From contig JAJZUD010000003.1 in the NCBI GenBank assembly GCA_021848625.1, positions 1 to 61,678 of the forward strand: DNA of 61,678 nucleotides, written 5' to 3'. This DNA is from Pseudomonadota bacterium. GTDB taxonomy: Bacteria > Pseudomonadota > Gammaproteobacteria > Francisellales > CACEW01. The notes under the pieces were generated by a model, which saw only the letters and a list, made by a program, of their open reading frames with translations, searched no databases and was not told where the DNA came from. Numbering within the stretch: position 1 is the stretch's first letter; each line of letters starts with the position of its first letter. Position numbers and translations under genes: made by a program. This document shows positions 21,011-23,963 of this stretch, in pieces.

Positions 21011-21682
21011 TTATCTTATTTTTTCAGGGATTTGAAGATCCAGGCTTGAAGTCACTTCAAGTTCACGATCTTCATAGGGATTACGCTCAGGATAGGCTAT
21101 TTTCCATGCGGCAATACGCTCGTCACGGGCCATAATGAGTTGGGCAATTTCATCACGGTAAACGCGAACCATGCTGGAGAGCCATAAATTTAAAGGCCAG
21201 GAGGGTAGACAATGGTCAATATTAAAATAATCCAGTAATTGAATCACGGTTGCCGCATCATACCAGGTTTCACCAGTGACCCAGCGGTTGGTCGTAAATA
21301 AAGAAAGGGGCTGGCCGTACTTGTCCATCGAGATGCCAATGAGGTGGCAGATATCATCCTCTTTGCTGCCATCAGGGCGACAAGAGCGATCAATATCAAC
21401 GGGTTGGAGCGTATCGGGGATGCCTTTTTTACGCAGAAATAGGTGAAAATGCCCATTCTCGTTGCTGCGGGTATTGACAGCCAACTGAGTGGGGTGAGCA
21501 TGGTAAAAATACTGCGAATGAGTTTCGTTGTCAAAAACGTCGCCTTTGGGGTAATGCGACCACTGCACAAAGGGCTCAGATTGACGCAGAATTTCCCAAA
21601 CGACATTGGATTTCGCCTTTGCCAGAACCCGTTGGCATTCTTTAATTTGTAGCCAATCGGGATGATCTTCAGGCAAAGGCAT
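21011..21682 (-). CDS. Conserved-looking cytoplasmic protein with two HxH motifs (DUF6969-like; putative metalloenzyme)
   Basis: HYPKGDVFD, QYFYHAHP, ENGHFHLFLR, HLIGISMDKYGQP, LFTTNRWVTGETWY; no signal peptide. The DUF6969 label is from memory of the motif pattern, not from a search. Confidence 0.7.
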   Translation of the reverse strand: MPLPEDHPDWLQIKECQRVLAKAKSNVVWEILRQSEPFVQWSHYPKGDVFDNETHSQYFYHAHPTQLAVNTRSNENGHFHLFLRKKGIPDTLQPVDIDRSCRPDGSKEDDICHLIGISMDKYGQPLSLFTTNRWVTGETWYDAATVIQLLDYFNIDHCLPSWPLNLWLSSMVRVYRDEIAQLIMARDERIAAWKIAYPERNPYEDRELEVTSSLDLQIPEKIR

Positions 21683-21688
21683 GAGGGA

Positions 21689-21964
21689 TTAATCCGGTTG
21701 GCAAGGATTGCAAGAACCGGCTGCACAAGGATTCATCGCTGCGCAGGGGTTGCAGGGGGAGCAAAGCGGGCCGCAGGGATTGCAACCGACGGCCGCATCA
21801 GGATTGCAGGGAGGACACATTGAAGCACAGGGAGCTCCAGCGCCACAGCCCATACTGCTTCCTGTAGAAATCGCAGCAGCAGGATTGCTCGCAGCAGAGT
21901 CGGCATGTGCCTGAGCCGTTGCAAGGACAGCAACAGCTGCAGTAGCCATAACGAGTTTTTTCAT
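21689..21964 (-). CDS. Secreted Cys-rich repeat peptide (12 Cys; CNPC/CxPC repeats)
   Basis: RBS GGGAGA, signal peptide [21 protein letters not shown], then an 18-aa Ala/Ser spacer and a 52-aa Cys/Pro/Asn repeat region. Stop is 6 bp from the next start. Confidence 0.85.
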
Positions 21965-22008
21965 GGTATGATTCTCCCATCGTTGATGAAAAATTGAAAG
22001 CGAGTTTA

Positions 22009-22037
22009 ATTCTAGCGGATTTTATTCGCGTTGTAAA
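22009..22037 (-). promoter_or_regulatory. Candidate sigma70-type promoter for the Cys-peptide operon
   Basis: Minus strand -35 TTTACA (22037-22032), 17-bp spacer, -10 TAGAAT (22014-22009), about 45 bp upstream of the peptide ATG. Confidence 0.5.
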
Positions 22038-22060
22038 ATATTTTGAAAGAGGAGAAAAGC

Positions 22061-22801
22061 ATGCTGAAGAAAGTGGTCGCAAACTGGAAAATGGGCGCGG
22101 ATCGCAAATTGGCAGAGTCCTTGTTGACTGAGTATAAACGTGAAAAATTTCACTTTGACGTAGACTTGGTGGTCTGCCCCAGTTTTGTGCACATTGCTTT
22201 GGCTCAAGCTAAGCTCAAACATAATCGTGAAATTTGCTTTGGCGCGCAAGACGTCAGTATGCATAGGGAAGGCGCTTATACAGGTGAGGTGTCAGCACAA
22301 ACCTTGAAAGAATTGGATTGTCGTTATGTGATTATCGGTCATTCCGAACGTCGCACTTATCATCATGAAACCAATGCGATGGTGGTTGAAAAAGTGAAGC
22401 AAGTGCTGGAACAGGGCTTAATTCCCATTATTTGCATTGGAGAGACCCTTGCTGAACGTAAGGATAATCAAACTGAGATCGTATTGCAAAGTCAGCTCGA
22501 AGCAGTTTTGAAATGCTTGTCACCCAAGACTGAATTCTGGATCGCCTATGAACCAGTCTGGGCTATTGGTACAGGGATCACACCGAGTTTGCAAGAGATT
22601 GCCGCTGCACATGCTTTTTTGCATAAAAAGCTGTATAATCACGCCGCTGCGGTTTTGTTGTATGGTGGGAGTGTTAAACCCAGTAATGCGTTAGAGATTC
22701 TGAAATTACCGCATGTGGATGGGGTGCTTGTTGGCGGAGCCTCTTTAAACGCGGGTGATCTCATGGCGATTTGTAGCGCAGCCCATCGTTGTAATCAGTA
22801 G
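22061..22801 (+). CDS. tpiA: Triosephosphate isomerase
   Basis: VANWKM, GHSERR, AYEPVWAIGTG, LYGGSV, LVGGASL. ATG 22061 follows GAGGAG. Confidence 0.98.
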   Translation: MLKKVVANWKMGADRKLAESLLTEYKREKFHFDVDLVVCPSFVHIALAQAKLKHNREICFGAQDVSMHREGAYTGEVSAQTLKELDCRYVIIGHSERRTYHHETNAMVVEKVKQVLEQGLIPIICIGETLAERKDNQTEIVLQSQLEAVLKCLSPKTEFWIAYEPVWAIGTGITPSLQEIAAAHAFLHKKLYNHAAAVLLYGGSVKPSNALEILKLPHVDGVLVGGASLNAGDLMAICSAAHRCNQ

Positions 22802-22821: not shown

Positions 22822-23178
22822 ATGTATAGTTTAATTTTGTTATTTCATGTGTTGTTTTGTCTCGCTTTAATTGCATTGGTGCTGTTGCAACAAGGAAAAG
22901 GGGCCGATGTGGGCGCAGCTTTTGGTTCAGGTTCAGCCAATTCGCTGTTTGGAAGTCGGGGCCCGGCTTCGTTTTTATTTAAGCTCACTGTTTTTTTAGC
23001 GGCTTTGTTTTTTGTGACGAGTATTGCACTGACGGTGATTCAAAAACAAAATATTGCTGCCGCCAATCAATTGGCGCCTCCATCTTCCCCTGCATCCGTT
23101 CAACAGCAACCTGCTTTTGTCCCTCCTGCTCCTGCGGCGAATATGCCTCATTCTGGAACCACTTCAGGTACTTCATGA
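22822..23178 (+). CDS. secG: Preprotein translocase subunit SecG
   Basis: LVLLQQGKGADVGAAFGSG...LFGSRG; conserved position after tpiA. Confidence 0.97.
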   Translation: MYSLILLFHVLFCLALIALVLLQQGKGADVGAAFGSGSANSLFGSRGPASFLFKLTVFLAALFFVTSIALTVIQKQNIAAANQLAPPSSPASVQQQPAFVPPAPAANMPHSGTTSGTS

Positions 23179-23555
23179 CACTTTGGTCCTCGCTGGGTCT
23201 TGTGATGTTGGGCAGCGCTCTCGGTGGAGTTTGCCGTTATCTGCTTGCTGATTTTATCAATCATTTTGTGCGAGGATTTCCGCTGGCTACTTTGACTGTG
23301 AATGTGATCGGTAGTTTTGTTATAGGCTTGTTGTGGGTGTGGGTCATGCACGCCTCTCACCGGGTTTTATTAGAGTCCTTGCTCATGGTCGGTTTGCTCG
23401 GGGGCTTTACTACTTTTTCTTCGTTTTCGCTGGATTCCTTTGCTTTGATTGAAGAGGGGCGAATTTTAGCGGCTGTGGTATATGTGCTTATCAGTATCGT
23501 GATCAGCTTGCAGGCTACGTTTTGGGGTGTGGAAATCATGCAGTGGATGCGTTAG
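23175..23555 (+). CDS. crcB: Fluoride channel Fluc/CrcB, copy 1
   Basis: GGVCRY, FPLATLTVNVIGSF, GLLGGFTTFSSF; ATGA overlap with secG. Confidence 0.93.
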   Translation: MTLWSSLGLVMLGSALGGVCRYLLADFINHFVRGFPLATLTVNVIGSFVIGLLWVWVMHASHRVLLESLLMVGLLGGFTTFSSFSLDSFALIEEGRILAAVVYVLISIVISLQATFWGVEIMQWMR

Positions 23556-23561
23556 GATAGC

Positions 23562-23963
23562 ATGATGAAACCAAGTAAGTTTGCATTAATTTTTTTAGTG
23601 GCCTGTGGAAGTGCGGTGGGTGGCCTCTTGCGTTATTTGATTTCAATTGGATTGAATCCCTTTGCTGAGCTTTTCCCCTGGGCGACGTTTGCGGTCAATT
23701 TATTAGGTAGTTTTTTGATTGGTGTCTTATTTGTATGGTGTGCGCGGTTTCAAGCGGAGCAAAAATTACGCGCCTTGTTGATTGTAGGTTTGATGGGCGG
23801 TTTAACCACATTTTCTAGCTTTTCTTTGGAGGCAGATGGATTAATCCACACAGGTAGGGCAGGGTTAGCTTTGCTCTATGTATTTTTAAGCGTGGTGTTG
23901 GGGATTTTAGGAGTGTTTTTAGGCATGAGTTTAATGCGGTTAAGAGGAAGGAAAATCAAGTGA
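23562..23963 (+). CDS. crcB: Fluoride channel Fluc/CrcB, copy 2
   Basis: GGLLRY, FPWATFAVNLLGSF, GLMGGLTTFSSF. Confidence 0.93.
   Translation: MMKPSKFALIFLVACGSAVGGLLRYLISIGLNPFAELFPWATFAVNLLGSFLIGVLFVWCARFQAEQKLRALLIVGLMGGLTTFSSFSLEADGLIHTGRAGLALLYVFLSVVLGILGVFLGMSLMRLRGRKIK

Follow-up and report, generated by a model that had tools for sequence, protein, structure and literature searches.

A stretch of 61,678 nucleotides (nt) of contig JAJZUD010000003.1 (assembly GCA_021848625.1), from a gammaproteobacterium of the order Francisellales, was analyzed as a whole and is hereafter called the window, to which all positions refer unless another locus is named. Two adjoining genes on its minus strand, one encoding a 91-amino-acid (aa) precursor peptide rich in cysteine and the other a 223-aa protein of the family DUF6969, are the subject of this work (Table 1). 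Residues 1 to 21 of the precursor form a Sec-type signal peptide that ends in AHA and is followed by D, an assignment made by eye from a basic n-region, a hydrophobic h-region and an A-x-A site. After it come an Ala/Ser-rich spacer and a 53-aa core ending in CQPD, in which 12 Cys are arranged in CxxC/NPC repeats with seven Pro-Cys dipeptides and four NPC units. What remains after cleavage is an acidic, low-complexity peptide that lacks K, R, H, F, W and Y. A Shine-Dalgarno-like GGGAGA lies approximately 8 nt 5' of the ATG, together with a putative sigma-70-like site (TTTACA-17-TAGAAT, 10 of 12 consensus matches, 22037..22009 on the minus strand). The sequence agrees with the first-pass annotation, which had claimed from the letters of the window a 91-aa open reading frame (ORF) with its own ribosome-binding site (RBS) and candidate promoter, a signal peptide and a 12-Cys core holding the seven Pro-Cys and four NPC units. 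In the promoter spacer (22009..22040, minus strand), we saw by eye an inverted repeat, ATTTTA-N9-TAAAAT, which could be an operator. The spacing of 6 bp between the peptide stop codon and the start codon of the DUF6969 gene suggests one operon, and the two genes are probably translationally coupled. The operon diverges from tpiA and is flanked by tpiA and parE.

Both genes hold up as real. Purifying selection acts on the peptide frame, since in a comparison with a homologue from the same genus nonsynonymous differences amounted to 26.2 over 206 sites and synonymous differences to 51.8 over 67 sites (saturated). Cys and Pro columns are invariant in an alignment of nine homologues (47 to 80% identity) that represent several genera of the family, and the n-region, h-region and A-x-A site of the signal peptide could be recognized by eye in all nine aligned sequences. 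Within its own genome (1.82 Mb in 112 contigs), the peptide is the only one among 10,910 ORFs of at least 40 aa with five or more PC dipeptides, the runner-up having four. No Pfam family scored better than an E value of 0.49 with the precursor, and no NCBIfam family matched it. A word search with the peptide returned a single match, as low-complexity repeats defeat the method, and relatives were found instead by scanning loci. A Cys-rich ORF that overlaps the peptide gene (21798..22082, minus strand) was considered as a gene and rejected as an out-of-frame shadow of the repeat, with selection and homology backing the frame at 21689..21964. Together with 21708..21914 on the plus strand, it illustrates that the other frames of the repeat are open and Cys-rich or Gly/Gln-rich, which may trap gene callers. 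The DNA data sets that contain the stretch carry the label mine drainage metagenome and stem from a single study, and one of them may be its source. No RNA data set was listed as containing it, and the only RNA run of that study put no reads on it, which counts neither way.

The 223-aa protein had been described in the first-pass annotation as a DUF6969-like HxH protein, and the profile search gave precisely this family: PF22308 was the only match (E of 3.7e-80, 268.7 bits against a cutoff of 27, residues 12 to 215), while no NCBIfam model matched. The family comprises 886 clusters at 50% identity (E of ≤0.001), and source records label its members only "hypothetical" or "DUF6969 family protein". 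A literature search for "DUF6969" and "PF22308" found no paper naming the family, and motif and metallothionein terms also gave nothing relevant, the supplements of the MNIO survey not being covered; a preprint on eukaryotic cysteine-rich repeats that came up was discarded as unrelated to the peptide. The protein contains the sequences YFYHAH and GHFHLF, whose histidines H61/H63 and H78/H80 make up two HxH motifs. In an alignment of 70 sequences (31 to 53% identity), P45, H61, G77, H78, H80, H113, N132, W134 and R186 are invariant, and H43, Y44, D51, Q57, H63 and E75 are nearly so. The AlphaFold2 model (pLDDT of 91.9 and pTM of 0.90) has two helices at the N terminus, a sheet of six strands and a C-terminal part that is helical. 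In this model, consecutive beta-strands bear six conserved His in i/i+2 pairs, close to a conserved Glu and a conserved Asp, a cluster that we infer to be a putative metal site. Comparison with the PDB gave no convincing relative, the best values being an E of 0.22 with Foldseek, a Z of 3.8 with VIA-align (best of 48,161 chains) and an E of 0.36 in the profile search. An Atlas search by features and structure recovered only DUF6969 itself, all other clusters having a TM of ≤0.35. Among the matches listed in the structure searches of the model were no cupin, MNIO or other metalloenzyme folds, a family outside those listings staying possible. The predicted structure is apparently a new fold.

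DUF6969 is assigned to the cytoplasm on sequence grounds, because it has no signal peptide and because it precedes the transmembrane helix in two fusion proteins (P0032 and P0117, of 625 and 633 aa), in which DUF6969 is followed by a coiled coil, a transmembrane helix and a periplasmic-type SH3_3 domain. Another relative (P0024, 497 aa) is a tandem double DUF6969. These fusions and the tandem fit a cytoplasmic protein that may work near the membrane, possibly as a dimer.

To find out how far the two genes travel together, we scored 60 genomes comprising the source genome and its relatives. DUF6969 was found in nine, all of them in the same family; leaving out the source genome, it was present in 8/18 family members and in 0/41 genomes of the sister family. 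All eight intact loci of the family have an ORF with a signal peptide and NPC repeats directly upstream of DUF6969 on the same strand, encoding 91 to 112 aa with 12 to 16 Cys and separated from DUF6969 by -30 to +15 bp, and in all eight the cassette lies beside tpiA. The ninth genome carries a truncated DUF6969 at a contig end and, 76 bp upstream, a partner of another type, with 71 aa in which a signal peptide is followed by GCCAGCC repeats. The peptide itself was detected in seven of the 60 genomes (source genome included), and in the sole one of these without a DUF6969 match, from the same genus, the contig stops exactly at the peptide.

An even sample of the class (401 genomes) contained DUF6969 in 36. 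Within 1.5 kb on either side of 29 of these class loci, 15 had an adjoining signal-peptide ORF with Cys repeats, one more had such a partner about 1 kb away and another had an uncertain ORF with PCGL repeats. Partners were NPCAAK-like, (GGNPCAPSAR)x10, runs of CSGC/GCC or, in one lineage, a His/Met/Cys-rich protein of 216 aa built of HPCMPE repeats. Seven partner peptides of differing types were compared with Pfam and NCBIfam, and no family matched. In a tree of 35 DUF6969 proteins, from which four truncated rows (L009, L010, L011 and L018) were omitted, the main clade has 27 rows, 24 of them with a neighbor that combines a signal peptide and Cys repeats, and the five GCC-type partners fall into a single DUF6969 clade (SH-aLRT of 100) that spans four taxonomic families. 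The partner-type labels change seven times on the tree, compared with a mean of 15.2 after shuffling. Peptide type follows the DUF6969 clade, a pattern that shows clustering and not independent coevolution, because related genomes share labels.

In a wider collection with one genome per species, at least 598 DUF6969 relatives were confirmed among 600 pattern matches, the two closest among the matches listed being metagenome-assembled genomes (MAGs) of Thiotrichales and Francisellaceae. The best 80 of these relatives, mostly from Alphaproteobacteria (Thalassospira, Sneathiella, Rhodospirillales and Azospirillum), were taken for neighborhood analysis. With a strict script, 42/80 loci proved to have an NPC-type protein with a signal peptide no more than 3 kb from DUF6969, 19 of them with the protein at ≤300 bp on the same strand, and a looser regular expression raised the count to 45; both flanks extend for 3 kb or more in 52 loci, and 30 of these had an NPC-type protein within that distance. 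The first-pass annotation had proposed a search for NPC-repeat signal peptides beside homologues of the HxH protein, and this search for Cys-repeat partners was strongly positive in the family, the class and the wider loci. Although the partner sequences vary (NPC, GCC/CSGC and His-Pro-Cys-Met types), all combine a signal peptide with Cys repeats, and a conserved enzyme-like protein with varied Cys-repeat partners is the pattern of variable substrates. Recurring in many proteobacteria, the pairing looks like a real and undescribed two-gene system.

Table 1. Features of the peptide-DUF6969 locus in the window, followed by features of related loci (with L numbers) and by other genes of the window
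Feature	Position or occurrence	Strand	Basis
91-aa precursor gene	21689..21964	-	sequence, 9 homologues, selection, genome-wide uniqueness
Upstream region with RBS and sigma-70-like promoter	21965..22037	-	consensus matches only
Gap between peptide stop codon and DUF6969 start codon, 6 bp	21683..21688	-	sequence
223-aa DUF6969 gene	21011..21682	-	PF22308 match, 70-sequence alignment, AlphaFold2 model
Long NPC/NPCAAK proteins	L063 5374..6294; L071 5677..6750; L072 4076..5797; L117 4901..5593; L135 4757..5449; L130 5470..6069		
DUF6969 neighbor: signal-peptide FGE-sulfatase-family protein, directly upstream	35/80 loci		
DUF6969 neighbor: small cytochrome c	33/80 loci		
DUF6969 neighbor: DUF2336	31/80 loci		
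DUF6969 neighbor: P460-domain proteins	22/80 loci		
Examples of FGE-like neighbors	L086 5911..6801 and 34 other loci; L123 1962..2921; L126 1135..1986		
HD_5 protein adjoining DUF6969	L135 2182..3288		
HD_5 protein adjoining NPC protein	L124 1369..2295		
Two adjoining crcB-like (fluoride channel) ORFs, 126 and 133 aa, downstream of secG	23175..23963	+	named by eye

The wider loci also place both partners in a richer context. A member of the FGE-sulfatase family is the commonest neighbor of DUF6969 as well as of the NPC proteins, and these FGE-like neighbors score far under all NCBIfam equivalog cutoffs (EgtB, SenA, PvdO and GldK). Gammaproteobacterial NPC proteins have beside them a c554-like multiheme cytochrome, thioredoxin-like proteins, a YHS-domain protein, Sulf_transp (PF04143), DUF302 and an HD_5 protein. 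The latter, HD-GYP-like and with a zinc-ribbon tail, adjoins DUF6969 in one locus and an NPC protein in another, and may be a regulator. In the genome of the window, searches gave no FGE-sulfatase, SoxA/TsdA-type or P460 match, the P460 search being silent in all control genomes too, and the two-gene cassette is for this reason taken to be the minimal form of the system.

Ribosomally made, posttranslationally modified peptides (RiPPs) with a signal peptide have been recognized recently through the bufferins, in which bacteria export enzyme-tailored Cys peptides to cope with copper. The likeness to this layout noted in the first-pass annotation is apt, as a Cys precursor with a signal peptide stands beside the gene of a cytoplasmic enzyme. 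According to PMC12452194 and PMC11626156, bufferins and oxazolins share with the present pair a Sec signal peptide instead of a leader, a Cys-rich core that is sometimes very long and repetitive, the gene of a cytoplasmic metalloenzyme immediately downstream and a product that acts in the periplasm. MNIO substrates mostly have Sec signal peptides and include long repeat proteins containing as many as 58 Cys (PMC12452194). Unlike in bufferins, the enzyme here is DUF6969 and not MNIO (PF05114), its model has no solved-fold match, and neither DUF2063 nor DoxX is present; the precursor matched neither DUF2282 nor the NCBIfam BufA2 model. The pair is bufferin-like in layout but is not a member of the bufferins or oxazolins. 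The earlier statement that there is no DUF692 here holds for the neighborhood but not for the genome, whose single PF05114 match lies on another contig (C47), within a separate, complete bufferin-type operon (L136 577..2809) composed of DoxX, a DUF2282/BufA2-like signal-peptide precursor, the MNIO (E of 1.6e-85) and DUF2063. Two distinct systems based on exported Cys peptides thus coexist in the organism. We considered whether this MNIO might act on the NPC peptide and rejected the idea, because it has its own DUF2282 precursor beside it.

Other known systems are more distant. Bacterial metallothioneins such as SmtA/BmtA and PmtA are also small, Cys-rich and presumed to bind soft metals, but they are cytoplasmic, fold around a zinc-finger-like core and contain His, whereas the peptide begins with a signal peptide, contains low-complexity repeats, lacks His once mature and matches no Pfam family; it is not a classical metallothionein. 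The SoxY-type covalent sulfur carriers with SoxAX/TsdA offer another parallel, as periplasmic Cys-bearing flexible segments that work with SoxA/TsdA-type heme domains, and in other bacteria such domains occur fused to NPC repeats. SoxY has, however, a single Cys in a C-terminal GGCGG motif, in contrast to the 12 to 67 Cys of the NPC proteins, and SoxA/TsdA-type matches are lacking in the genome of the window. The link to the FGE family (FGE-sulfatase, PF03781) is that the gene of a periplasmic member is the top neighbor of DUF6969 in Alphaproteobacteria. FGE oxidizes the Cys within CxPxR, and the CNPC units loosely resemble its CxPx, but there is no Arg at repeat position +4 and the search for the family in the genome of the window found no match.

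The two-gene operon is probably a conserved functional module of extracytoplasmic metal or thiol chemistry. Our favored reading, to which we give a probability of roughly 0.4, would have DUF6969 act on the Cys repeats ahead of export, yielding a periplasmic poly-thiol binder or buffer. DUF6969 would be a cytoplasmic metalloenzyme that works on the Cys-repeat core before or during its hand-over to Sec. Export of the precursor by Sec and cleavage would then leave an acidic peptide of about 70 aa in the periplasm or outside the cell, probably disordered and presenting its 12 thiols as overlapping CxxC/NPC units, and this product may bind or buffer soft metal ions, for example Cu(I), or reactive thiol or sulfur species. 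A precursor with its tailoring enzyme is suggested because a conserved enzyme-like protein is tightly coupled to variable partners that follow its clades, and because one protein is cytoplasmic and the other exported. Hints of a metal come from the HPCMPE-repeat partner in one lineage, from a CDF cation-efflux gene that adjoins the cassette in 2/8 family loci and from the YHS protein beside an NPC protein. We infer metal binding by DUF6969, any catalysis on the peptide and the nature of the peptide's ligand. Cofolding of DUF6969 with the precursor scored 0.00 in two runs in which the fold of the partner was uncertain, a result that counts neither for nor against binding.

Several observations weigh against this reading. 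No result shows catalysis, metal binding or contact between DUF6969 and the peptide, and the cassette has no partner resembling a RiPP recognition element (RRE) or DUF2063, no protease and no dedicated exporter. A divergent DUF6969 clade of eight rows has no clear partner apart from the uncertain PCGL case, and the strict script found no NPC-type protein within 3 kb in 38/80 wider loci; five such genomes were scanned whole, and four had no NPC-x3 pattern at all, while the fifth had only out-of-frame hits with a spacing of 13 nt. Conversely, there are clear NPC proteins in genomes without a DUF6969 match, four of them on contigs of 2.2 to 6.4 kb, where absence may be an effect of assembly, and two on long contigs of 130 kb and 1.06 Mb (G185 and G139). 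Across the class sample, the NPC-x3 pattern occurs in 27/401 genomes, with DUF6969 in 8/27 of these against 28/374 of the pattern-negative ones, but the 27 include several hits that lie out of frame or in repeats of another kind, and the peptide of the window is itself missed, its NPC spacing being too wide. We also noticed that NPC-repeat genes often lie at or near the ends of draft contigs. The repeats seem to break assemblies, and calls of absence for NPC genes or their neighbors in MAGs are therefore unreliable. Altogether, the DUF6969-peptide link is facultative in both directions, so that of the coupling proposed in the first-pass annotation the recurrent adjacency stands, but either partner occurs alone and the association is not obligatory. 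Finally, elsewhere the repeats form N-terminal domains of proteins of 300 to 573 aa with up to 67 Cys, whose C termini are cytochrome P460 or SoxA/TsdA-type cytochrome c domains (we found no description of this architecture), and they are encoded beside periplasmic thioredoxin-like, FGE-like, multiheme and sulfur-transport proteins. Such a context points to periplasmic redox or sulfur chemistry, for which a cytoplasmic maturase is not required.

Given this context of heme, thioredoxin and FGE-like proteins, metal chelation has a serious competitor in a thiol or sulfur redox role. In the strongest of the alternatives, the peptide would be an unmodified periplasmic carrier or buffer of thiols, serving sulfane sulfur or thiosulfate, disulfide redox or metals, and DUF6969 would belong to the same pathway but act on a small molecule or another protein, such as an imported or exported thiol or sulfur compound. 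The fusions of NPC repeats to SoxA/TsdA-type cytochrome c or P460 domains speak for it, as do the thioredoxin-like, multiheme c554-like, FGE-sulfatase-family, Sulf_transp and DUF302 neighbors, an FGE-like gene directly upstream of DUF6969 in 35 of the 80 loci with cytochrome c nearby in 33, and the occurrence of either partner alone. The genome of the window, however, keeps a tight cassette without any of the FGE-sulfatase, SoxA/TsdA-type or P460 matches, and the way peptide type tracks the DUF6969 clade is a better fit to direct recognition, so that we consider this explanation rather unlikely while taking it seriously. The other alternatives are less likely still. Translational coupling, which would yield roughly equal amounts of both proteins, together with the tandem and membrane-anchored forms of DUF6969, could also indicate a noncatalytic holdase or metal guard that binds the precursor or cytoplasmic metal and keeps the precursor reduced, metal free and export competent until it reaches Sec; the need to avert premature export or mishandling of signal-peptide precursors is raised in PMC12452194. 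A rigid, well-predicted fold with an invariant His/Glu/Asp cluster would nonetheless sooner be expected of a catalytic or tight metal site, and DUF6969 persists in genomes without a detectable Cys-repeat protein, which makes a holdase improbable in our view.

A small secreted Cys-rich peptide with a cotranscribed gene is likewise the layout of some bacteriocin loci, and the peptide might be a secreted antimicrobial or signal with DUF6969 as immunity or processing factor. Yet a transporter, a protease and a membrane immunity protein are all missing from the cassette, and the low-complexity mature peptide is acidic. In addition, long domains of periplasmic cytochromes are built of the same repeats, and the position beside tpiA, kept in all eight family loci, is housekeeping-like; we regard this option as very improbable. 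Even less credence, close to none, is due to a meaningless adjacency or to a small ORF that is no gene. RNA evidence for the gene was not obtained, but its frame is under purifying selection and conserved across genera, and the adjacency is seen again in other classes, where the peptide sequences differ.

There is a real chance that DUF6969 is a new enzyme class. In the most far-reaching form of the favored reading, which is possible but doubtful, it would be a class of metalloenzymes with an unseen fold that installs a novel modification on the Cys motifs (CxxC/NPC/GCC) of Sec-exported precursors, thus providing an MNIO-independent, RiPP-like route to periplasmic poly-thiol metallophores or redox carriers across hundreds of proteobacterial species and including the Cys-repeat tails of c-type cytochromes. 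The pair follows the logic of the bufferins with an unrelated enzyme family, and the repeats of its presumed substrate are in no family library. At least 598 stretches of the collection with one genome per species encode DUF6969 relatives. Should DUF6969 modify these peptides, a chemistry new to enzymes would be added, along with a new class of chelators or redox carriers of natural origin. If there is no modification, a cytoplasmic His-cluster protein coupled to periplasmic poly-Cys, heme, thioredoxin and FGE-like proteins would still mark an undescribed thiol or metal system of the cell envelope.

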